From: Candidatus Multivoradales bacterium
GTDB taxonomy: Bacteria; Acidobacteriota; Thermoanaerobaculia; Multivoradales; Multivoraceae
Direction: 5' to 3'
NCBI GenBank assembly: GCA_965223325.1
Contig: CBDCWI010000002.1
Location: 3,680,001-3,744,000, forward strand
Length of the DNA: 64,000 nucleotides
How positions within the stretch are numbered: the first letter of the stretch is position 1; every line of letters starts with the position of its first letter. A program made the position numbers and the translations under genes. The notes beneath the pieces are model-generated. The model saw nothing but the letters and a program-made list of their open reading frames with translations, was not told the DNA's origin and searched no databases. Positions 11,841 to 24,698 of the stretch are shown piece by piece.

Positions 11841-12440
11841 ATGACTTCAACCATCCAGCAGATCCGCGAACACGCCCAGAAGTACCGGGCCGGAACCCCT
11901 TTGACCGCAAAGGGGCTACTCCATCTGGGGAGTCGCGCTGCCGTTGACCAGGCACTGTCGCGTCTCGCACGCTGCGGCGAGCTGCGGCGCATCTCACGTG
12001 GCCTCTATGTCCGTTCCATCGAAACACGCTTCGGATCTCGCCTACCGGAAGCGAGTGTCGTACTCAGGGAGCTCGCCAAGCAAACAGGTGAAGCGTTCTT
12101 TCCAAGTGGTGCCCTTGTGGCCTACAACAGGGGGCTAACGAGTCAGGTACCGGTCCGACAGGTGTACTTGACAAGCGGCAGATCTCGGATGCTCTTCCTC
12201 GGCGCGCAGACCATCGAGCTGCGACACACCAAGCAAGGGCACCTTGGATCAGCGGCGAAGTGGACCAACGATGCTATTCGGCTGCTGCAGTGGGCACGCC
12301 CAGGCCAGGAAACCGATCGCGTCATCGAGCTCCTCACGGAGACCGGCTCAAACAAGGAGATGCAGGACCTTCTTTCCCTCAGACCTCACCTTTCGACCCC
12401 GAAAGCAGTTCGTCTGAGCGAACTCGCCCATCGTGCCTGA
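11841..12440 (+). CDS. DUF6088-family / AbiEi-like type IV antitoxin (winged helix)
   Basis: LLHLGSRAAVDQALSRL..LRRISRGLY, GLTSQVP..YLTSGRSR. Directly upstream of an AbiEii-type gene. Confidence 0.85.
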   Translation: MTSTIQQIREHAQKYRAGTPLTAKGLLHLGSRAAVDQALSRLARCGELRRISRGLYVRSIETRFGSRLPEASVVLRELAKQTGEAFFPSGALVAYNRGLTSQVPVRQVYLTSGRSRMLFLGAQTIELRHTKQGHLGSAAKWTNDAIRLLQWARPGQETDRVIELLTETGSNKEMQDLLSLRPHLSTPKAVRLSELAHRA

Positions 12441-12750
12441 GACCTTTCTCGAACTGTCCGGAAGCGACAAGAGGGACGTTCTTCAGATCGGGGCAGATCG
12501 GGGCAGATCGATCAGGTCGCCCTGCTGATCTCCTTGAGAAGGACGTCTGGGTCGTTCGTTGCCTAGAAATACTCTGGGAGCAACGATTCGCCGAGCATCT
12601 ATCTTTCAAGGGGGGAACCTCCCTCTCGAAGGTTTATAAAGCCATCGACCGCTTCTCTGAAGACATCGACCTGACCTACGACATTCGCGAGCTCATCCCC
12701 GACCTGATGAACACTGACGAACCTCTCCCCAAGACTCGAAGCCAAGCTGG
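12433..12750 (+). pseudogene. AbiEii/AbiGii nucleotidyltransferase toxin, frameshifted and truncated
   Basis: GTG 12433 overlaps the antitoxin stop. A 10-bp tandem duplication (CAGATCGGGG) shifts the frame. The downstream frame has LEKDVWV..FKGGTSLSK..RFSEDIDL. Similarity ends near KTRSQA. Confidence 0.85.
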
Positions 12751-12854
12751 CCCTGAGGGACTACGTGCCCGAGTGGAGGAGTCTCAGGCTGGCGAACACC
12801 CGGTTGCAACTCCGCTCGGTGCGCATCTAATGTCGTGCGGTTCAACGAAGTCTT

Positions 12855-13568
12855 TCAGTCGCGGGTTCTCGACCGCATCGCTCGAGGATGATCAGAGCTG
12901 CCTTGGCACTCCAGATGCCGGCGCTGCAGCTGGCTAGCTAAGGGTGTCTGCCCTTGCTTTTCGATGTCCTCGATTGCTCGAGAGACATTCCATTCGGGCG
13001 GGCAATCTTCGACCCAGGCAACGAGCTCATCTTCCGACTCTGGAAGTTGTTTCACCCAGCGCTCAACCATGGATCTGGACAGTGCCGATCCCGGCCAGTC
13101 GGCAGCGAATTGTGGCTCTGTTCGCTGCTGGCGTAGCGCGACGCTAAAAGCACTCAGTCCGATCAGAAGGGCAACGCCAGCAACTGAGACAGTCCGCAAC
13201 CAAACGATCCCGGAAGGGTTCCACTCTTGCGGTTTACGGACCCAACTCCTCAGGCTGAACCAGAGGCAGGGGGCCAGCAGGAGGCCGACCAAGCCGAGCC
13301 CGAAAAACATGACACCGAGAGCAAAAACAACCGCGACGATACTCGCGGCCTTTCTTAGTCCCGGGATTCCCGAGTCGGATAGCCCCTGCCAGGAACGAAT
13401 TGCCGCCAGCGCCAGGAACCACGACGCCGACAGCAGAGCCCATCCCTTGACCGGAGGCAAGATCCAGTCGGCGGCGGCCGACCCGCATACAGAGCAGGCC
13501 TCCGCGGGGACGCTCGACAGTGCCAGGATCGAAAAGCCGGCGAGGGTGAAAAGGGTGCGTGATTTCAT
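12855..13568 (-). CDS. Hypothetical membrane protein
   Basis: Signal peptide followed by CSVC and 3-4 hydrophobic helices. Confidence 0.6.
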   Translation of the reverse strand: MKSRTLFTLAGFSILALSSVPAEACSVCGSAAADWILPPVKGWALLSASWFLALAAIRSWQGLSDSGIPGLRKAASIVAVVFALGVMFFGLGLVGLLLAPCLWFSLRSWVRKPQEWNPSGIVWLRTVSVAGVALLIGLSAFSVALRQQRTEPQFAADWPGSALSRSMVERWVKQLPESEDELVAWVEDCPPEWNVSRAIEDIEKQGQTPLASQLQRRHLECQGSSDHPRAMRSRTRD

Positions 13569-13985: not shown

Positions 13986-14471
13986 CTACGGTGGCGGCAA
14001 CCCCTCGGGAGCGGGCATGTAGAGACCTGTCGGGATGAACGCATGCTCGGGAAACTCATCAAGGGCTTCCCTGATGCCCTTTCGCAGTCGAGCCGACGCA
14101 AGGCGGTAACGGTCGATCCACAGATCCCGCATGTCCACGTAGTGCTTCCACATCTCAAACGTCGCAGCGTGGACCTTCGGGCGCTCGCTCTTCTTCGAGT
14201 ACTCCGGCTGGTAGGCGAACTGGCTCTTGTCGGTCAGGCAGAGGAAGTCACGGATCTGCTCGGCCGACTCTGCACGGACTAGGAGATGGACGTGATTCGT
14301 CATGAACACGACGAAGCACAGGCCGAGGCCGAACTTCGCCTGGGCGTAGGCGAGGACTCCGATGAGGAGCTCGTTGAGCCTCTTGGAGGGGATAAAGAAG
14401 AACCTGCTCTGGAAGGTCTTAAGCGTCACTTCGTACATGTTGTCGGGCGGAAGCCACCGGGGGTTTCTCAT
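13986..14471 (-). pseudogene. REP-associated tyrosine transposase (RAYT / Y1 HUH family), probably internally deleted
   Basis: YEVT..T..SRFF and FMTNHVHLL (HUH motif). The expected Y-xxx-NP catalytic segment is absent and the protein is only 161 aa. Confidence 0.7.
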
Positions 14472-14604
14472 ACCCCTATGAGACGCAAACCGGCCGCGAG
14501 CCCTGACTGCGCACCAGCCGTCGTCACCGAGGTAGGAACCGCCGTCTTCTTAGGACGCAGAAGCCCGCGAGTTCCTTACAGACTGCCAATGCCGCTTCGC
14601 GCTG

Positions 14605-14664
14605 CCCGAACTACCCGGTACCCGTGCTCCCCCGGTACCCGTGCTCCGTACCCGTGCTCCCCCC
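14605..14664 (-). repeat. REP-like repeat cluster, right flank, inverted relative to the left flank
   Basis: CCCGAACTACCCGGTAC (exact reverse complement of the 17-nt left core), with GTACCCGTGCTCC occurring three times. Confidence 0.85.
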
Positions 14665-14867
14665 GGATGTCGGTCATTGCGCGGGCTCCGGAAGCAGGGG
14701 TGAGCTGTTGCTTCCTTGTTCCGGATCTGCGCGTCATTGTTACTGGCGCCGTTCTGCCCGTCGTCGCACGTGTGGCGTTAGGGTTGAGGTTGTGGGTAGA
14801 GCTTCCGCGCCGACTAGACAAGGTCGAAATCAATGCCAAATGCCTTAGAGCGAAGGGAATCCAGGTA

Positions 14868-16373
14868 ATGCGAAGTCGTTTCTCGCCGTTCCTACTTACG
14901 GGGTTGGTCTTTTCTATAGGTCTATTGGCTGCTCATAGCGAGCTGGCCAGCCAGCCATTGCTATCTGCTGAACGCGGAGGGTCGCAGGCGCTCCGAATTG
15001 ACTTCGGGCCAAGCGACACTGTTGCGGTGTCGCCTCTGGGTCCCACCTCGGCAGCCTTGCTTCTCGGCAGGGCGCGCTACTTCAACGGGTCTCTCTTTGT
15101 GAATCGCCCGGTCGCAGAGGTCCTCAGGTCGCCAGATCCCTCGGGTCGCGTTGAGTACGAGTTCGGTATGAACGTTCCGGCAACTTCCCTATGGGTCGCG
15201 GTCGACTTGGAGACCGGTGCGGCGAGTGAACTTCTGGGTGGCGGCGCTGGGACGTTCGAGACCCAGGTACCCCCAGACGCGATACGCGAGGAGTCAGGGA
15301 AACGGAGCCTGCTGTACTTCCCGCTGGGGACTGCGACGTTCTGGCTGGTCCGCACAGGCGGTGAGCTGCAGAACGCTGGGATCTGGATGGCCTCCGTCTT
15401 CGATGCCGATCCCCTGGACGTGGATGGGACGGCGAATGCCCAGGTCTTGGTTCGGCTTGCGGACATGGAGCCTTTTCAGGGCTTCGGCGTAGACCCCCCA
15501 ACGGAAGTCCTGCCGGGTGACTGGGTCACTGTCATCTCGGACCGCGATCAGACGTACTACGCGTTTCGAGTCACAGTGTCGCAACCTGGAACCGAGCCGG
15601 AGGACACGCTTCGGGTTATGGCGCGGGCCGAACCTGGCCTCCACAACAGTATCAACGACGCGGTGCGCGCCTTCGGCGGCTACACGATCTACAGTCAACG
15701 ACGGGGCGAAGAGTTGCTTCTTCGGGTCCCGGCGGACTCTTTCGGTAGCCTCCGCACGATGGCCCTTCGCGAACCCGCGTTCTACTCGCTTCGTGTCGAC
15801 GACTTCAACTGCAACCCGTTCGCCGAAGCGTGCAGGCCCATCGCTGTGGGGCTTTCAGCCGAACCGTCAGCCTCAGCAACGGTGGCTGAACTCGAGGAGG
15901 TGCTTCGCAGTTTGGGCGGGGAGCGTGTTGGCGGCCACTTCGCCCTTCGGGAGGATGAGATTCAGAACTTCGCCCACTCGTCGCGTGTCGACGGCGCCTC
16001 CATCCACATTCTTGGGAACGACCCCGACGCTGGGTCCGACTACCTGGGGCTAGGAGTCGGCCACCGTTTCACGGCCACCGCCACATGGTCAACAGCAGAT
16101 GGTCGCAGTGATAGTGCGCGCCCCAGAGAGCAAAGCGTGGCGAGTGGCTCAATGTACTTCTTCGGCTCCGACAACAGCGAGCTCTTCATCAAGGTACTCA
16201 ACGGCTGCGGACTCAACGGGCATCGGTGGGTGTTCATCTCGGGCTTGACCGATGTCGGTGTCGATCTAGTTGTGCGTGACCGGTTGCAGGGGCTAGAGCG
16301 ACGGTACACCTCACCGATTGGTGAAGCGTTCCAGCCCCGTTTCGACACGGTTGCGTTTCCCTGCTCGGGCTAG
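14868..16373 (+). CDS. Secreted protein with lineage-typical Cys-containing C-terminal domain
   Basis: Start re-called at ATG 14868 (signal peptide MRSRFSPFLLTGLV). C-terminus FFGSDNSELFIKVLNGCGLNGHRWVF..GLTDV..DTVAFPC. Confidence 0.7.
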   Translation: MRSRFSPFLLTGLVFSIGLLAAHSELASQPLLSAERGGSQALRIDFGPSDTVAVSPLGPTSAALLLGRARYFNGSLFVNRPVAEVLRSPDPSGRVEYEFGMNVPATSLWVAVDLETGAASELLGGGAGTFETQVPPDAIREESGKRSLLYFPLGTATFWLVRTGGELQNAGIWMASVFDADPLDVDGTANAQVLVRLADMEPFQGFGVDPPTEVLPGDWVTVISDRDQTYYAFRVTVSQPGTEPEDTLRVMARAEPGLHNSINDAVRAFGGYTIYSQRRGEELLLRVPADSFGSLRTMALREPAFYSLRVDDFNCNPFAEACRPIAVGLSAEPSASATVAELEEVLRSLGGERVGGHFALREDEIQNFAHSSRVDGASIHILGNDPDAGSDYLGLGVGHRFTATATWSTADGRSDSARPREQSVASGSMYFFGSDNSELFIKVLNGCGLNGHRWVFISGLTDVGVDLVVRDRLQGLERRYTSPIGEAFQPRFDTVAFPCSG

Positions 16374-17152: not shown

Positions 17153-18073
17153 TCAGGCGGCCTTTGAGAGCTTCCACTCTGAACGGATCTGAGCGGGCGT
17201 CAGGTAGCCGTGCTTCTCGACCAGCCAGTTCTGGTTGTACTTCGCCTTGAAGTCGAGCAACGCGAGACGCAGGTCTTCGACGGTGTCGAATCTCTTCACC
17301 CAGAGCAGCTGCTCCTTCAGGGTTCGGATGAAGCGCTCGGCGACACCGTTGCCTTCCGGAGCCCGCACGAAGCTCGGCGACGAGCAGATGCCCAGAAAGT
17401 CGATCTCCTGCTGGAAGTCTCGGCTGGCGTACGCGCTGCCCCAGTCGTGGCGCAGGCCCAGGCCCAGCGCGACGCCCTGATCGGGCTCGCCGAAGTGCTC
17501 ACGAACGCCCTGGCGCACAGGCTCGAGAGCCTCGAAGCGATTCCCCGACCTCGAGGCGTGGATCCCGATGCACTCGCTGGTGCAGTGATCCACGGCGACG
17601 AAGATCCAGGCCAGGCCTTCCTCTCTCGTCCAGGTCATCGTTGCGTCGGTGCCCCACATCAGATCGGGCTCTGGCATCGTGATCGTCCCGTCGTGGACCC
17701 GAGGGCCACGCTCGCGACCCACGCGAGTAGGTGCAAGAAGCGAGTTCTCGCGCATCAGGCGTAGCACTCGCTCTCGACCCACGTGGACGTCGCGTGCCCT
17801 CAGGCGAGCCCTCACCTTGCGATGCCCTTCGCCACGCAAGCCGGTCTCCTGCTCGAGCTCGCGCACGACCTCTTGGATCATGGCCACCAGCTCCTGATCC
17901 GAGACCGCCGTCTTCGGGCCGGTCTTGCGCTTCTCGATCCCGCAAGACTCGCGGCGCTTGCGCGCGGCGTAGAAGCCAGACCGGGCAACCTCCCAGAGAC
18001 GACAGACCCGTGATATGCCGTAGCGGATTCCTGTGGAGGGAGAGGGTGCGGCACTCACTTCCTCGACCTCCAT
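17153..18073 (-). CDS. IS3-family transposase OrfB (DDE integrase core)
   Basis: RVLRLMRE, WGTDAT, VAVDH, RHDWGSAY, PEGNGVAERFIRTLKE. Confidence 0.92.
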   Translation of the reverse strand: MEVEEVSAAPSPSTGIRYGISRVCRLWEVARSGFYAARKRRESCGIEKRKTGPKTAVSDQELVAMIQEVVRELEQETGLRGEGHRKVRARLRARDVHVGRERVLRLMRENSLLAPTRVGRERGPRVHDGTITMPEPDLMWGTDATMTWTREEGLAWIFVAVDHCTSECIGIHASRSGNRFEALEPVRQGVREHFGEPDQGVALGLGLRHDWGSAYASRDFQQEIDFLGICSSPSFVRAPEGNGVAERFIRTLKEQLLWVKRFDTVEDLRLALLDFKAKYNQNWLVEKHGYLTPAQIRSEWKLSKAA

Positions 18074-18402
18074 CCAAGAAAAGGCTTCTCGCCCTCCAAG
18101 CGATGGATCTTCTCGAACAGAAGCTCCTGATCCATCGTCAGTTCACCGATCTTCGCCTGCAGCCGCCGCTTGTCCTCGACAAGAGACTCGACCACCGGAT
18201 CCTCGGTACGGGCTTTCAAGCCCTCCTCACCTGCGCTCAGGAAGGACTCGCGCCACTCGCTCAGACGAGCCACCGTCAGGCCGGTCTCGCGCGACACCTC
18301 GTCAAGCGACTCGCCGCGAAGAAGACGCAGGACCACAGAGGCCTTGCGCTTTGCGGACCAACGGCCCTTCGTCTTCGGAGCTCTTCGTTTCGTCTTCGAC
18401 AT
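18055..18402 (-). CDS. IS3-family transposase OrfA (HTH plus coiled coil)
   Basis: RWSAKRKASVVLRLLRGESLDEVSRE..LSEW..LQAKIGELTMDQELL. Confidence 0.9.
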   Translation of the reverse strand: MSKTKRRAPKTKGRWSAKRKASVVLRLLRGESLDEVSRETGLTVARLSEWRESFLSAGEEGLKARTEDPVVESLVEDKRRLQAKIGELTMDQELLFEKIHRLEGEKPFLGWRSRK

Positions 18403-18522
18403 TCGACACCTCCAACCCGAACTTAGCTCGGGTCATGTGTCCAACGAAAACCCAGGCCGACAGAGTGAGCGCCTGTGCTCCGCCTCCGATCGTCACCCGG
18501 TCGGCGTGATTCATCGCCTCCT

Positions 18523-18617: not shown

Positions 18618-18738
18618 ATGACCATTAGGAGGTGAGCGGGTGGCCTTTACGAAGCGGTTGAAGCCTCCGCTGGTAACAACGCCGGCGGGATCCGGAAGAA
18701 GGGTGTGACAGCCATTCCCGGCCGCCCGGAGCCCGCCC

Positions 18739-21033
18739 ATGACCGACATCACAAACGACAATCCTTCAGGATTCAGCCTGAATCTGTCCGACACCTTCGG
18801 TGGTTCCGATAGCGGTTTCGGAACCTCGCCGAGCCTCGAGAGCGACACCTACGAACCGTCAGGCTCCAGTGGCTTCGGCTCGCTTTTCGAGGCCAACACG
18901 CAGGCCCCGGCAACGTTCGACCTCGGACTCGAGGAAAGCTTCGGCACTGACTCCGACTTCAACTTCAGCTTCGACGCTGGCCTCGGCAGCAACAGCGCGA
19001 ACCTCTGGGACTTCGACACAGACTTCTCCTATGACGATCCGTTCGGCTCAGACTGGAGCCTCGACCCATGGCCCGACGACTTCGGCACCGACACCGACCT
19101 CGAAGAACCGCGCCAGTTCGATCTCGGCTGGGATTTCGACTTCGACCTCGACATCGGCGGTAGCGAAGAAGATCGGCAGCTGGGTCTGGAGCTCGAGAAC
19201 TTCGACTGGAACTGGGATGACGCGGGCTTCGACACTGAACCCGCAGAATTCAGCCTCTGGGGCGGTCTGCCTGATGACGCCTGGTCCGATGCGAACTTCG
19301 ACTTCGGGTTCGACTTCACCAACGATCTCGATTTCGACCGGGACTTCGACCTTGATGACGCAGCCTGGTTCCGCGGCCTCACCGAACCAGGCACAGAACC
19401 CGCCTGGACGCCCGTCTTCCGCACCCCCGAACTCGCTCCCAACCCCCATGCTCCAGGCTTTCAACTGACCGTCGAGAAAGGCGACACCCTTTCAGCCCTA
19501 GCCCAGTCTCTCGGCATCACCGTCGACGATCTACTCGAGGTCAACCCCGGCATCACCGAAACCAGCACCCTCCAAATCGGCGAGAAGCTCGCCGTCCCCG
19601 CCTGGACGCACAGCGAAACCGTGACCGTAAGAGGACACGCCAACGCCTGTACCGCCGCCGAGCGAATCCACACCGCCCTCCTAAGCGGCGACAACGAAAT
19701 GGCGAAGGTCGTGGAGATCCGCAGGGCCATCGCCAGCGCCGGGCCAGGAGAAGGCGAAGCTCTCATCGAGGCCATGCGCAAGATGGCGCTCGACGAAGAA
19801 CTCATGACGTCGCTCGACCCGCGCTACCGAGAACTCGTCGAGGAGCAGATCCACAACCTCGGCGGCTCCACCATCTCCTACCTCGAGCCGGTGCTCGAGC
19901 AGATCGCCTACGGCTACGTCGAGGGAATGGCCGACGGCGGCGTTGAGGCAGTCGAAGCCTTCAAGTCCCTCTTCCGTGCTCAGACCTGGAAAGACCTCGG
20001 TGCTCTGGGAACCACCGTCGTCAAAGCAACCAACCTCGGCGTCGGCCTCGTCGACCCCGACGCCCAGTCCGATGCCATGGCCGATTTGATTCTCATGACC
20101 CAGGCATCGTGGGAGAACTTCCGCGACGGTTGGCAAGACGCAAAGGACAATGGAACCACCCTGCGCTACATGTCAGAAGCGGCCGGCCGATTGACAACCG
20201 AAGCGTTCATCGGCGCCGCCGGAGGCGCCGCAACAACAGCCGCCAAGACCGGCCTCCGCCTGGGGCTCAACGCGGGCGAAGCTGCCACTCTCGGTCGCCT
20301 CGTCGATGGCATCGAGACCGCATCCCGCTGGCGCGCGGACTGGATGCCTGATGAGGCGTTGGGCATGTTGTCGAAAGAAGGGCAGGCTGCCCTGCGCGCA
20401 GTTCACAAAGCACACGAACTCGACAACAACAAGGGCCTCCTGCCAGGCGTAGTCGAGCAAAAGAAGGCAGAGCGCAGCATCGCCCTTTCCGAAGTGCTGG
20501 TCGCCGAACTCTCGCCAGAAGATATGGCGCGCTTCGCAACGCTCCTCGAGAACGACTACCCCGATTTCCACCGCGGTGCCTTTCCGGGCATGGACCCATC
20601 GCGACTGCCGTCACTCGAGAACCCTCTGTTTCATGACGCCCATGTGCATTTCCCCGACGTCACCTACAAGCCTGGACGGGGCGGCAGGCTCAGAGCGTCA
20701 GTGGCCGGCTATCATCATCGGCAAGGTGGAGTGGATGCTCCAGGGGTGCAGCTGGTCAACGCGTCGAAGCCCGATGCGAATGGTGTCTACAAGGGTTTTG
20801 TGCAGTTCCAGGACCCTCTATCGGGAACTTGGGGGAGACAGAAGGCCAAGACGTTCTTTCCGGACAGCTGGAGTGCCTCCCGGATCAGACGTGAAGTCAC
20901 CGCGGCCTTCGAGAATCGTGAGCCAGGCACAGGTCCGTTCTGGAAGGGCTACTCACCAACAGGGATTCTGATCAAGGGTTGGTTGGACTCCGCCGGGAAT
21001 ATTGCGACGGCCTATCCTGTCCCCTTCAAGTAA
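18739..21033 (+). CDS. Polymorphic toxin: acidic low-complexity N-terminus, LysM, helical linker, bacterial EndoU RNase tip
   Basis: LysM TVEKGDTLSALAQSLGITVDDLLEVNP..LQIGEKLAVP. EndoU motifs H..AGYHH..PDANGVY..KTFFPDSWS..I..EV..AF..WKG..IATAYP. Confidence 0.85.
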   Translation: MTDITNDNPSGFSLNLSDTFGGSDSGFGTSPSLESDTYEPSGSSGFGSLFEANTQAPATFDLGLEESFGTDSDFNFSFDAGLGSNSANLWDFDTDFSYDDPFGSDWSLDPWPDDFGTDTDLEEPRQFDLGWDFDFDLDIGGSEEDRQLGLELENFDWNWDDAGFDTEPAEFSLWGGLPDDAWSDANFDFGFDFTNDLDFDRDFDLDDAAWFRGLTEPGTEPAWTPVFRTPELAPNPHAPGFQLTVEKGDTLSALAQSLGITVDDLLEVNPGITETSTLQIGEKLAVPAWTHSETVTVRGHANACTAAERIHTALLSGDNEMAKVVEIRRAIASAGPGEGEALIEAMRKMALDEELMTSLDPRYRELVEEQIHNLGGSTISYLEPVLEQIAYGYVEGMADGGVEAVEAFKSLFRAQTWKDLGALGTTVVKATNLGVGLVDPDAQSDAMADLILMTQASWENFRDGWQDAKDNGTTLRYMSEAAGRLTTEAFIGAAGGAATTAAKTGLRLGLNAGEAATLGRLVDGIETASRWRADWMPDEALGMLSKEGQAALRAVHKAHELDNNKGLLPGVVEQKKAERSIALSEVLVAELSPEDMARFATLLENDYPDFHRGAFPGMDPSRLPSLENPLFHDAHVHFPDVTYKPGRGGRLRASVAGYHHRQGGVDAPGVQLVNASKPDANGVYKGFVQFQDPLSGTWGRQKAKTFFPDSWSASRIRREVTAAFENREPGTGPFWKGYSPTGILIKGWLDSAGNIATAYPVPFK

Positions 21034-21043
21034 GGACCAGTAG

Positions 21044-21451
21044 ATGCTGAAAATCGACTTTTCTACCGAGACACTGTCCAAAGGCACCAAGCTGCCGCTT
21101 GCAAAGGCTGAAGGTGACTTGAACCTCTTGGCCTTGTTCCTCCACAGCGAGTGCCTCTATCCATATCTGGTTCGTGGTGCCCTCAACTGGCTCTCAGCGA
21201 TCCTGGCAGCAGGCGATGGTCCCGAAGCAAAGCGCCTCGGGATGGTCGGAGGCGACGACGTCACAGCAACGTTTGAGGACGGCAAGATCCTGCTCGAAGC
21301 CGAGCCTCACGTAACCGCCGACTACCCGGAGCACTACGACGTCACTCCAGAGGACTTCAAGGAAGTACTGGTCGCCTGGATGAAGTTCATGGAAGAGAGC
21401 GGACTCGGCGACCCACCGGAGATGGCGCACGTCGAACCTATCCAGCGATAG
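21044..21451 (+). CDS. Putative cognate immunity protein
   Basis: 135-aa acidic ORF 10 nt after the toxin stop, with TAAGGA RBS. Has a paralogue at 24288. Confidence 0.75.
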   Translation: MLKIDFSTETLSKGTKLPLAKAEGDLNLLALFLHSECLYPYLVRGALNWLSAILAAGDGPEAKRLGMVGGDDVTATFEDGKILLEAEPHVTADYPEHYDVTPEDFKEVLVAWMKFMEESGLGDPPEMAHVEPIQR

Positions 21452-21709: not shown

Positions 21710-23062
21710 CTACTCAGCGAGGACGTAAATGCGCTTCGGGTCTTGAGGGCCCGTTCCGATCTCGCGGATATGGCCGGAAGCCACGAGCTTTGCGAGCCGC
21801 GTCCTCGTCGCCCTCGTGCTCATGCCGAGCGCGTTGGCAATCTCACTTGTCGACAGACCCTCGCTGCTTGCGAGTTGTTCAAGAACAAACCGGTCCTTAT
21901 CGTCCATTTTGGGAGCCCCCACCTTTTCGCTGGGAATGGTCACTCGAAAACGGACCGCGACCTCCTCGAAACGAGGCGGAGCAAGGCCGGCGTCTTGGCA
22001 CCCGGCGATCATTCGCTGGACACCGCTTCCCCATTGCTCGATGAGTCCAAGCTCATAGAAGGCCCGCCCAATCACTCGGTTCCTGAGCTTTGATACGCCC
22101 TGCTGAAGATCCTCGATAGTTAGACCAAGAGGCAACAAACCCGGGCTTTCGATCTCGAGACGATCATCGAAGACCGAAACTCGAATGGGAGCGCCTGTCT
22201 GCGAATAGTCGGCGTGGGCCACGGCGTTGATCACAGCTTCTCGTACGACCACTGGTGGAACGCTCCAAATCTCCCGGCGACGAACAGAGCCGATCTCGGC
22301 GCCATGAAGGCTGTGCTTTTCGACGAACTCGATAGCTTCCTCGACAGCACGAACAGGCATCGATCGAATCTCAGCCTGGTCCACGATCTTGCTCTTGTCG
22401 AATCCTCTGAAGCGGCCTGCCTGGATCCAGGCATCCGGGAAGTGCTGCCTTCTGTTCTTGCCGAACAAGATGACGCCGCCAACAGTTGGAACCGATCGTC
22501 CCTGGTGTGGAGCCAGGAGGTGAAGCGTCTCAAGATCTCGACGTCTCAGCTTCCGGACCCCAGCGAAGAACTCGGAAGCAGCTCGGAAGTCCAACTCTTC
22601 CGAGTCGAGTTCTGGCATCGGCTGTTCGTCGTAGCTTTCGCTCCGGCTGGACCGCCTCAGTTCCTCGAGCAGCTGCTGATCTGCCCGACGGTTGCTCGAT
22701 CCGACCCGCACATAGGTAGTGTTTGCGGCGCTCTTGCCACTGAGGTAGTGAGGGCGTGTCGGACTTGGAAAGACCTCGACCGATAGAACGTAGGTTTCAC
22801 GCCATGGCAGGATCTCGATCTCAGGGATCAAGCGAGGCGAGACACGGTCGCTGATCAAGTTTGCAAGACGCTCCTCCATGTCGACTGGCTCCTCGACACC
22901 TCGGACATGCCGTGATTGGTCTTCGACCCCTATCAGCAGCGTTCCGCCGGACGTGTTTGCGAACGCGACGATCGTCTTCAAAACGCCCTCCACCCCCGAG
23001 AGGTCGCGTTTGAACTCGAGGACCTTGCCCTCTTGGCGTTTCAGTAGCTCCACCAGACCCAT
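21710..23062 (-). CDS. AlbA_2 (Schlafen-like) + HATPase_c_4 + HTH protein (RecG-like/COG2865)
   Basis: LEFKR..IVAFANTSGGTLLIGVED, REAVINAVAHADYS, IESPGLL, RNRVI, IEQWGSG and a C-terminal HTH. Confidence 0.88.
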   Translation of the reverse strand: MGLVELLKRQEGKVLEFKRDLSGVEGVLKTIVAFANTSGGTLLIGVEDQSRHVRGVEEPVDMEERLANLISDRVSPRLIPEIEILPWRETYVLSVEVFPSPTRPHYLSGKSAANTTYVRVGSSNRRADQQLLEELRRSSRSESYDEQPMPELDSEELDFRAASEFFAGVRKLRRRDLETLHLLAPHQGRSVPTVGGVILFGKNRRQHFPDAWIQAGRFRGFDKSKIVDQAEIRSMPVRAVEEAIEFVEKHSLHGAEIGSVRRREIWSVPPVVVREAVINAVAHADYSQTGAPIRVSVFDDRLEIESPGLLPLGLTIEDLQQGVSKLRNRVIGRAFYELGLIEQWGSGVQRMIAGCQDAGLAPPRFEEVAVRFRVTIPSEKVGAPKMDDKDRFVLEQLASSEGLSTSEIANALGMSTRATRTRLAKLVASGHIREIGTGPQDPKRIYVLAE

Positions 23063-24212: not shown

Positions 24213-24281
24213 GTCTTGATTGAGGGTTGGCTTGATCAGGCGGGGAATCTCGTGACGGCGTACCCTGTTCCGGGGGAGTGA
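24213..24281 (+). pseudogene. Orphan EndoU toxin extreme C-terminal fragment
   Basis: VLIEGWLDQAGNLVTAYPVPGE* versus toxin end ILIKGWLDSAGNIATAYPVPFK*; 15 of the first 20 residues identical. Confidence 0.85.
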
Positions 24282-24287
24282 GCCAAG

Positions 24288-24698
24288 ATGCTAGACATGG
24301 ACTTTTCGATCGAGACACTCCGCGACGGCACCAGAGTTTCTCGAGCCAAAGCAGAAGGCGACCTGAACCTCCTTGCTCTGTTTCTCTACAAAGAGTGTCG
24401 CCGCCCGTATGTCATTCGCCGGGTTCTGAACTGGCTGCCTGCCAAAATAGCTGCCGAGAATGACCGCCGGGAGAGTCATCGACTCGGCAGAATGGGTGGC
24501 AACGACGTCACTGCCACCATCGAAGATGGTCTCGTCGAACTCGAAGCAAAGCCCCACGTTAGCTGCGACCACCCGGAGTACTGCGACGTGACTCCGGAGG
24601 ACTTCAAGGAAGTCCTGATCGCCTGGATGAAGTTCCTGGAAGAGAACGGGCTCGGCGATCCACCGGAGATGGCGAACGTCGAACCATTCCGTCGCTAG
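24288..24698 (+). CDS. Orphan immunity protein paralogue
   Basis: About 66% identical (hand alignment) to 21044..21451. Confidence 0.8.
   Translation: MLDMDFSIETLRDGTRVSRAKAEGDLNLLALFLYKECRRPYVIRRVLNWLPAKIAAENDRRESHRLGRMGGNDVTATIEDGLVELEAKPHVSCDHPEYCDVTPEDFKEVLIAWMKFLEENGLGDPPEMANVEPFRR

Follow-up and report, generated by a model that had tools for sequence, protein, structure and literature searches.

The usual way to classify polymorphic toxins is by the trafficking domain at their N terminus. In the portion of the survey by Zhang et al. (2012, PMC3482391) drawn on here, lineage-specific constant N-terminal domains, such as MafB-N and Microscilla-N, are treated as possible novel secretion or anchoring devices, and LysM is described as an adhesion module in some toxins. 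Colicin E9 (ColE9), as presented in sections of PMC8561637, combines an 83-residue disordered N-terminal translocation domain, bearing linear OmpF and TolB epitopes, with folded domains and a nuclease accompanied by an immunity protein. Excerpts of a survey of nuclease bacteriocins (PMC5536347) report disordered N termini in five of eight groups and release via lysis proteins or prophage genes, and the TonB box of pyocin G lies within an unstructured N terminus according to part of bioRxiv 10.1101/2021.11.17.469063. Here, we describe a toxin gene and its putative immunity gene, encoding proteins P0001 and P0002, in a 64,000-nucleotide stretch (the window) of the genome of Candidatus Multivoradales bacterium, an acidobacterium (contig CBDCWI010000002.1, positions 3,680,001 to 3,744,000). 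Sequence comparison indicates that they belong to a real, lineage-restricted polymorphic toxin-immunity family, which carries none of the known N-terminal trafficking domains.

The toxin gene (18739..21033, + strand; ATG start) encodes 764 amino acids (aa), and the putative immunity gene (21044..21451, + strand) encodes 135 aa; the two open reading frames (ORFs) are separated by 10 nt (21034-21043). A first-pass annotation of the window, made from the letters alone, had described a 764-aa ORF with LysM and a C-terminal EndoU domain and a small gene 10 nt behind it, and this description holds, with both domains scoring above their Pfam cut-offs. LysM and EndoU_bacteria are the only two Pfam families matched at E ≤ 1 in P0001, and an NCBIfam scan gave merely sub-threshold LysM-type matches. 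RHS, PAAR, haemagglutinin, and WXG/LXG domains, which the same annotation had not seen, are likewise absent from P0001 in the Pfam search. The start codon is backed by six homologues with the N termini MTDI or MSDI. A signal peptide, also reported missing before, can be excluded for P0001 at the level of prediction, because only about 10 codons are open 5' of the ATG (the open frame is 774 aa against 764 aa), leaving no room for one upstream, and because the N terminus is non-hydrophobic, with a maximal 19-residue Kyte-Doolittle value of -0.06 over the segments starting in the first 25 residues. No transmembrane-like segment was found in P0001 (19-residue maximum, 1.29). An AlphaFold2 model, built on a 7-sequence alignment and having a low mean predicted local distance difference test score (pLDDT) of 49, lays the protein out as an unstructured region (1-226), a LysM unit, helices (300-606), and a beta-rich domain (641-760). 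With the whole model as the query, a Foldseek search of the PDB gave no match with E ≤ 0.001; the CdiA-CT EndoU toxin 5hkq_A ranked first and was followed by solved LysM domains.

As judged from its domains, P0001 is an EndoU (RNase) member of a polymorphic toxin family. The EndoU_bacteria domain (PF14436; residues 654-761, 20698..21021, + strand) was matched with a Pfam E value of 5.6e-16 and 59.5 bits against a cut-off of 25.3 in the profile test that the first-pass annotation had proposed. The match covers profile positions 18-128 of 129, scores 63.9 bits in the genome search, and is the only EndoU_bacteria match that the profile search gave in this genome. In the model, the folded tip spans residues ~641-764 with pLDDT values of ~70-80, and the domain is basic (isoelectric point [pI] 10.2, charge +9). 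Its best Foldseek match is 5hkq_A, the CdiA-CT EndoU domain of Escherichia coli STEC_O31 (E 0.025, probability 1.00, TMt 0.44, 138 columns), a weak E value that reflects the use of the entire 764-residue model as the query. H636, H659/H660, and K704-T705 are conserved in all three EndoU members and are candidate catalytic residues by sequence; for 5HKQ, a His-His-Lys triad with an adjacent Thr is reported in the part of PMC9086364 used here.

P0002 looks like a cognate immunity protein. It is acidic (pI 4.5, charge -13), complementing in charge the EndoU tip (+9), and searches of Pfam, NCBIfam, PADLOC, and PDB sequences gave it no family. Of 401 genomes searched in the phylum, only its own carries the immunity protein, in two copies. 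The second copy sits 3 kb downstream of the toxin locus, behind an orphan EndoU remnant that consists of the last 22 codons and the stop codon (VLIEGWLDQAGNLVTAYPVPGE; 24213..24281, + strand) and is 75% identical to P0001 residues 743-762 in tblastn. This orphan immunity paralogue of 136 aa (24288..24698, + strand) shares 91 of 136 residues (67%) with P0002 in BLASTP (E 1e-68). To go by these alignments, the segment 24213-24698 is a displaced tip-plus-immunity cassette.

The strongest evidence for a polymorphic toxin system is this orphan tip-immunity cassette together with four further paralogues. With residues 1-234 as the query, four full-length genes and one 48-residue fragment interrupted by TGA were recovered from the genome (6.69 Mb, 2 contigs, 98.2% complete), and the family total comes to five full paralogues and one fragment because P0009, found via the central region, is also encoded in this genome. 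The search for homologues with different C termini, which the earlier annotation had recommended, thus found P0006, a 589-residue paralogue, P0005, and P0009, and the alignment places the swapped C-terminal parts behind three break points. P0006 has only the N-terminal ~225 residues in common with P0001, with the break after the N-terminal region; the 589-residue paralogue shares the N terminus and LysM, with the break after LysM; and P0005 is common up to about residue 555 and then has a different C terminus. P0009 has a diverged N terminus, LysM, the helical region, and then another C terminus. Pfam, NCBIfam, and PDB sequence searches identified none of the four other tips, LysM alone being matched. 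Behind the paralogues with other tips lie different small ORFs, which are without known families, and a second orphan immunity gene (C1:1399177-1399494), located behind the tandem paralogues, is 86% identical to the small ORF following P0005. Of the features by which Zhang et al. (2012) recognize polymorphic toxins, the family has a constant N terminus with variable tips and displaced tip/immunity cassettes; an N-terminal domain assigning a known trafficking route (signal peptide, two-partner secretion [TPS] domain, PAAR/VgrG, RHS, WXG/LXG, MuF, or PVC) was not found.

The constant module of the family is the acidic, Gly/Ser/Asp/Phe/Trp-rich region formed by residues 1-226 (18739..19416, + strand), which is predicted to be disordered. 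It is assigned this role in place of LysM because it is common to all members, while P0006 is without a Pfam LysM. The first-pass annotation had put forward a toxin class in which LysM binds peptidoglycan; its polymorphic toxin, cognate-looking immunity gene, and lack of a recognizable delivery domain stand, but LysM does not define the class. The acidic character that it had noted is confirmed by 58 D+E against 5 K+R in residues 1-234, which also contain 40 F/W/Y and 24 Gly, and residues 1-226 have a net charge of -53. In the AlphaFold2 model, this region is predicted to be without secondary structure (pLDDT ~24). Three motifs stand out in P0001, namely, FDLGLE (60-65), GSDWSLD (103-109), and FDLGWD (127-132), and all seven family sequences keep, in the same order, two or three FDLG[LWF][DE]-type motifs and one GxDWxLD.

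By its pattern of substitution, this region is under purifying selection and is no neutral filler, because of its ratios of nonsynonymous to synonymous substitution (dN/dS), the ordered retention and uniqueness of its motifs, and a shuffle test against P0009. It is 68 to 72% identical to the corresponding region of three other full-length genes of the genome, and dN/dS is 0.26 to 0.30 in five of the six paralogue pairs, at dS 0.68 to 0.74; the sixth pair is a recent tandem duplicate (dS 0.08, dN/dS 0.59). Among 33,624 stop-to-stop genome frames of at least 100 aa, nine contain either motif, and both occur together in the five toxins only. The four single-motif frames were considered as endogenous proteins being mimicked, and they look like chance matches. 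The N termini of P0001 and P0009 give a similarity score of 117, compared with 60.6 ± 10.9 for shuffles, and none of 1,000 composition-preserving shuffles reaches it. In the ESM Atlas, nothing scored above 0.83 for residues 1-295 or above 0.86 for residues 290-650, and the EndoU, MafB, and LysM clusters returned are leads only.

The N-terminal region also contains DPF, DPW, and F-x-D-x-F-like strings, which resemble clathrin-adaptor appendage-binding motifs. Such strings would suit an effector against eukaryotic grazers (amoebae and protists), in which the N terminus mimics trafficking-adaptor motifs, EndoU attacks host RNA, and the immunity protein protects the producer only. This reading is very improbable. 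A D/F/W-rich sequence would contain such strings by chance, DPF/DPW occur only once or twice per protein at positions that are not fixed in all members, and the invariant motifs (FDLG.. and GxDWxLD) are of another kind. In addition, LysM and the orphan immunity cassettes point to bacterial rivals.

The LysM domain (PF01476; residues 244-287, 19468..19599, + strand) was matched with a Pfam E value of 2.3e-11 and 43.9 bits against a cut-off of 20.9, and its modelled fold agrees with 5k2l in Foldseek (TMt 0.86, root mean square deviation [rmsd] 1.2, 48 columns). It is present in four of the five paralogues, P0006 being the one without a Pfam LysM. Behind it lies the central region (residues 300-606, 19636..20556, + strand), which the models show as all-helical with pLDDT values of 40 to 85; a separate model of the region is also all-helical, with a mean pLDDT of 57.8. 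Its Ala/Gly-rich helical nature, as stated in the first annotation, is borne out by 42 A and 28 G in residues 291-555 and by the modelled helices. The first five-helix unit (residues ~298-378) resembles an annexin repeat (1m9i_A, Z 7.4) and superposes on the N-terminal domain of Tse3 (4luq_A, Z 7.2, rmsd 2.8, 82 residues), and, with Z values of ~7 in the range of chance for helical models, this likeness is a lead and no assignment. An exhaustive search of 1.84 billion representatives with residues 290-653 returned four proteins only. The best foreign match, P0009, proved to be encoded by the same genome (C1:1702365-1704542), and the central helical region has no foreign relatives other than P0010 and P0011, at 28 to 30% identity. 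Both show weak Pfam matches to T6SS_Tse3_N (E 1.6e-4 and 1.8e-4) below the cut-off, and a search of a 5.8-billion-protein index with P0010 returned only P0010 and P0011. These two proteins share one 168-kb NCBI contig, are Lys-rich as if from a low-GC organism, and have no obvious signal peptide.

The family has a narrow distribution. It is absent from the 60 nearest genomes (1 of 61, counting its own), a same-genus genome among them, and two metagenome orthologues, 77% and 70% identical, both carry LysM and EndoU. A word-indexed protein search gave seven proteins at E ≤ 0.001 among 7,999 scored candidates, of which five share the N terminus and two share LysM only; the same kind of search with the family alignment gave no members beyond the same five, plus LysM-only matches. 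Pattern scans of metagenome contigs with the family alignment (451 stretches) and with P0009 (57 stretches), as well as a scan covering 185,579 species with one genome each (222 stretches), confirmed no relative; the contig scans rest on few back-translated patterns, with which relatives may be missed. Of 3,347 long frames, P0013 (652 aa; C2:2400924-2402882, - strand) is the only other one with an acidic, aromatic-rich N terminus. It matches no Pfam family, its HSQGA string could be a lipase-type serine motif, and a 205-aa ORF lies 12 nt downstream; the two may form another signal-less toxin pair. As a sixth family member, P0013 was rejected, its relation to the family not being demonstrable (hhalign probability 0.1).

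Marker genes of known delivery systems were searched for in the genome and counted only where the control search was positive in at least one known genome. No matches were found for VipB/TssC, PAAR, Phage_sheath_1 (control positive in three genomes), WXG100, or VirB4, and the search for a T4 gp19-type tube was uninformative, its control giving no match in any genome. The first-pass annotation had advised a look at genes of type VI secretion systems (T6SSs), extracellular contractile injection systems, and type VII secretion systems (T7SSs), and the genome is without marker matches for these and also for a VirB4-type type IV secretion system. P0001 does not have the features of their cargo either. 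A T6SS effector is not indicated, with no T6SS marker in the genome and no PAAR, VgrG, MIX, or Rhs module in P0001; nor is the cargo of a contractile injection system, with no sheath match in the genome, or an LXG/WXG substrate of a T7SS, with no WXG100 in the genome or in P0001. For contact-dependent inhibition or two-partner secretion, the signal peptide, TPS domain, and haemagglutinin repeats are all missing from P0001. No secretion gene lies within ~10 kb of any of the five loci, and around P0001, where the earlier annotation had also seen none, there is none among the 25 ORFs scanned from 6654 to 37528.

We tentatively favor, at somewhat less than an even chance, the reading that the toxin is a colicin- or S-type pyocin-like bacteriocin that is released independently of a secretion system, with the N terminus as an import device and LysM holding peptidoglycan. 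By analogy, it is preferred because of the lack of a signal peptide, the motif-bearing and disordered N terminus, the helical parts, the C-terminal nuclease, the adjacent immunity gene, the swapping of modules, and the lack of a secretion system. Among the features expected of a bacteriocin, the predicted disordered N-terminal region (residues 1-226) is present. The toxin would be made in the cytoplasm, where the basic EndoU domain would be complexed with the acidic immunity protein, and it would be released without a dedicated exporter, through lysis of some cells or an unspecified leak. At the target envelope, the helical region and/or LysM may hold the toxin, and the disordered N terminus could thread through an outer-membrane protein and offer its motifs to Tol- or Ton-type energy-coupled periplasmic proteins. 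LysM would then grip peptidoglycan in the target periplasm, and the C-terminal part would cross the inner membrane, after which the RNase would cut RNA, the substrate of the closest solved relative being tRNA; the immunity protein would shield sibling cells. The genome contains a TolB gene with a TonB/TolA-like neighbor, and its SurA-, TolB-, and MraZ/dcw-type genes fit a diderm bacterium.

Several points weigh against this colicin-like reading. The N terminus has about three times the length of its ColE9 counterpart and is extremely acidic. It contains no identifiable Tol or Ton box, GSDWSLDPW having only a likeness to the TolB box of ColE9. No plausible lysis-type small ORF is found between 21451 and 21710. 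P0001 has no Pfam match at E ≤ 1 to the Pyocin_S/IMT domain (PF06958), the colicin T domain (PF03515), or any colicin domain, and the Pyocin_S/IMT domain is described as present in all nuclease bacteriocins in the part of bioRxiv 10.1101/2021.11.17.469063 consulted. EndoU has zero occurrences in the consulted part of the nuclease-bacteriocin survey PMC5536347. With known members in just one genome and two metagenome contigs, the family offers no basis for co-occurrence statistics. Finally, the genome encodes a single C39-peptidase ABC transporter and a single FlhA, which makes an export route conceivable. P0001 is accordingly no member of the colicin/S-pyocin nuclease bacteriocin family as its predicted domains define it, because it has neither IMT nor colicin domains, no lysis ORF accompanies it, and EndoU does not appear in the survey.

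A related proposal, which we regard as doubtful, is that P0001 represents a new kind of toxin chassis that delivers itself, and the first family of colicin-style protein bacteriocins outside Proteobacteria, working by leash threading, a LysM ratchet, and a new helical carrier. The 226-residue polyanionic leash, with its three FDLG-type motifs and one GxDWxLD, would thread an outer-membrane channel and hijack energized periplasmic proteins. In the periplasm of the target, LysM would serve as a ratchet on peptidoglycan, and the helical module, which is known from just 4 proteins among 1.84 billion representatives, would bring the exchangeable tips through the inner membrane.

The C39-peptidase ABC transporter and FlhA also speak for the reading given in the first-pass annotation, in which the acidic N terminus would be an export or loading signal for an unrecognized secretion route or for one not normally tied to polymorphic toxins. 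Such a route may be a type I or C39-peptidase ABC exporter, the flagellar type III gate, a Tad or type IV pilus, or vesicles, with LysM anchoring the toxin on the producer or target wall. The N terminus is the only module found in all members and is under purifying selection, and such a pattern marks the trafficking domain in known polymorphic toxins, according to the portion of PMC3482391 available. In addition, six close members carry DTFGG at residues 18-22, which is superficially like a double-glycine leader. This GG is, however, not kept in the distant paralogue P0009, which has RG there, and the hydrophobic spacing of a double-glycine leader is presumably not matched by the family N terminus. 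A double-glycine leader was considered unlikely on these two grounds. Type I signals are normally C-terminal, and that end is variable in the family, which also counts against export by such a system. About 64 kb separate the C39 transporter from the closest toxin paralogue, and the other paralogues are far away from it. No transporter gene adjoins any of the five loci, and the toxins have no conserved chaperone-like or adaptor gene as a neighbor. We consider this export reading possible but rather unlikely. The statement of the annotation that export uses an unknown route presumes that a machine is needed, whereas the colicin/S-pyocin model expects neither a signal peptide nor a secretion system. 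Read by eye, the region of the C39-peptidase transporter (C1:1758001-1778000) places it among large ORFs, namely, two long ones upstream, one of 383 aa, and an ABC-like one of 1122 aa downstream; the locus could serve in bacteriocin export.

The genomic surroundings bear on a further alternative, that of a toxin-antitoxin or abortive-infection module that works inside the cell, is never exported, and is kept in defense islands. Behind an AbiEi antitoxin-like gene (11841-12937, + strand; PADLOC E 8.5e-48) comes a short ORF whose match to AbiEii is confined to the N-terminal part of that protein, and the two are probably a decayed AbiE defense pair. An insertion sequence (IS) of the IS3 family lies immediately 5' of the toxin gene, with its transposase gene (rve, HTH_21) at 17153-18509 (- strand), and IS copies flank two toxin loci, since the IS3 partner ORF recurs beside P0006 (C2:4448537-4449341) with 115 of 115 residues identical (100%). 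A 450-aa protein with Schlafen/AlbA_2, HATPase_c_4, and winged helix-turn-helix domains (21710-23062, - strand), convergent with the immunity gene, gives weak PADLOC matches associated with prokaryotic Argonautes. GmrSD and Fic genes adjoin P0006. These defense and mobile neighbors (AbiEi with the AbiEii fragment, Schlafen/AlbA_2, IS3, and GmrSD with Fic) are in keeping with such a module, as are the lack of both a signal peptide and a detected secretion system and the segment 16,265-26,416 of the window, which has no blastn match in three relatives. LysM, present in four of the five paralogues, is on the other hand a peptidoglycan/chitin-binding module of extracytoplasmic proteins; the constant N terminus, swapped tips, and orphan cassettes are the signature of exported polymorphic toxins, going by the part of PMC3482391 cited; and neither the four family members scanned nor the immunity protein has a PADLOC match. 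An intracellular module is thus improbable, and both it and the anti-grazer effector are less likely than the colicin-like and export readings.

Also in this island, upstream of the IS element, is a 695-aa ORF (14286-16373, + strand) with a coding-like GC content at third codon positions (GC3) of 0.67 and no Pfam or PADLOC match. Near P0006, an IS200/Y1-transposase-like array (C2:4455000-4476000) holds at least five copies, 95 to 99% identical within two types, and interrupts the N-terminal toxin fragment at C2:4464672-4464815. The toxin gene is preceded by a conserved 5' leader of ~67 nt (18672..18738, + strand) with GGTAACAAC, an inverted repeat, and a GGAG 10 to 13 nt before the ATG, and this leader can be aligned across all four close paralogues and the copy that is an N-terminal fragment. 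The inverted repeat, TCCGGAAG ... CTTCCGGA in most copies, would pair over the GGAG. The leader was considered as a structured RNA and rejected; it has no Rfam match of note, and no RNA structure can be claimed because none of the 22 predicted pairs shows a compensatory change. No sigma-70-like promoter match was found in it. The leader may be the edge of the recombining unit, or a promoter or operator.

The family is of interest because polymorphic toxins are classified by a trafficking domain that it does not have in any known form. If the N terminus is an import device, the colicin principle, in which disordered epitopes parasitize envelope machines, would reach a phylum that has, by the literature searched, no characterized protein bacteriocin, and the family would supply new portable delivery modules in the form of a motif-bearing disordered region, LysM, and a new helical domain. 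If it is an export signal, it would mark a secretion route not yet linked to toxins. Either way, five paralogues in one genome of cultivable size, each with its own tip and immunity gene, make up a compact experimental system, and four of the tips and all of the immunity proteins, being outside described families, could adopt new folds. The toxin tip, LysM, and polymorphic-toxin logic are known, and the chassis is new by the literature searched, although Additional file 1 of Zhang et al. (2012) could list similar architectures; the literature on polymorphic toxins of Acidobacteria contains no such family by title or abstract.

Compared with known systems, the tip of P0001 is closest to CdiA-CT EndoU/CdiI of STEC_O31 (5HKQ), which is its best structural match and belongs to the same Pfam family, and the His-His-Lys and Thr residues given for 5HKQ in the part of its description used here have candidate equivalents in H636, H659/H660, and K704-T705. 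The tip is only 10% identical to 5HKQ in the structural alignment, P0002 and CdiI are unrelated by sequence, and CdiA is a Sec-dependent, two-partner-secreted filament with haemagglutinin repeats, whereas P0001 has none of these properties. Tse3 (4LUQ) has an N-terminal annexin-like domain similar to the first five-helix unit of P0001, with scores in the chance range for helical models; unlike Tse3, P0001 has no muramidase domain, and neither TssC nor PAAR was found in its genome. Toxins with MafB-N or Microscilla-N, as far as the cited portions describe them, resemble the P0001 family in having a constant N-terminal module of one narrow lineage and several paralogues with different tips per genome. 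Their module is globular and has a signal peptide, whereas that of P0001 is predicted to be disordered and has none, and, unlike with MafB, no MafA-like partner gene is conserved beside the family loci. Colicins and S-pyocins differ from P0001 in their Pyocin_S/IMT and colicin T or R domains, in the lysis genes that go with colicins, and in their tips of the HNH, ColE3, ColD, or ColE5 type in place of EndoU. P0001 differs from them in its LysM and in its disordered region of 226 residues with a charge of -53, and its host is an acidobacterium, whereas theirs are gammaproteobacteria. In the parts of the cited studies drawn on here, ColE9 and pyocin G nevertheless share with P0001 the lack of a signal peptide, a disordered N terminus before helical parts, a C-terminal nuclease, and an adjacent downstream immunity gene, and with its family they share domain swapping among relatives and independence of a secretion system.

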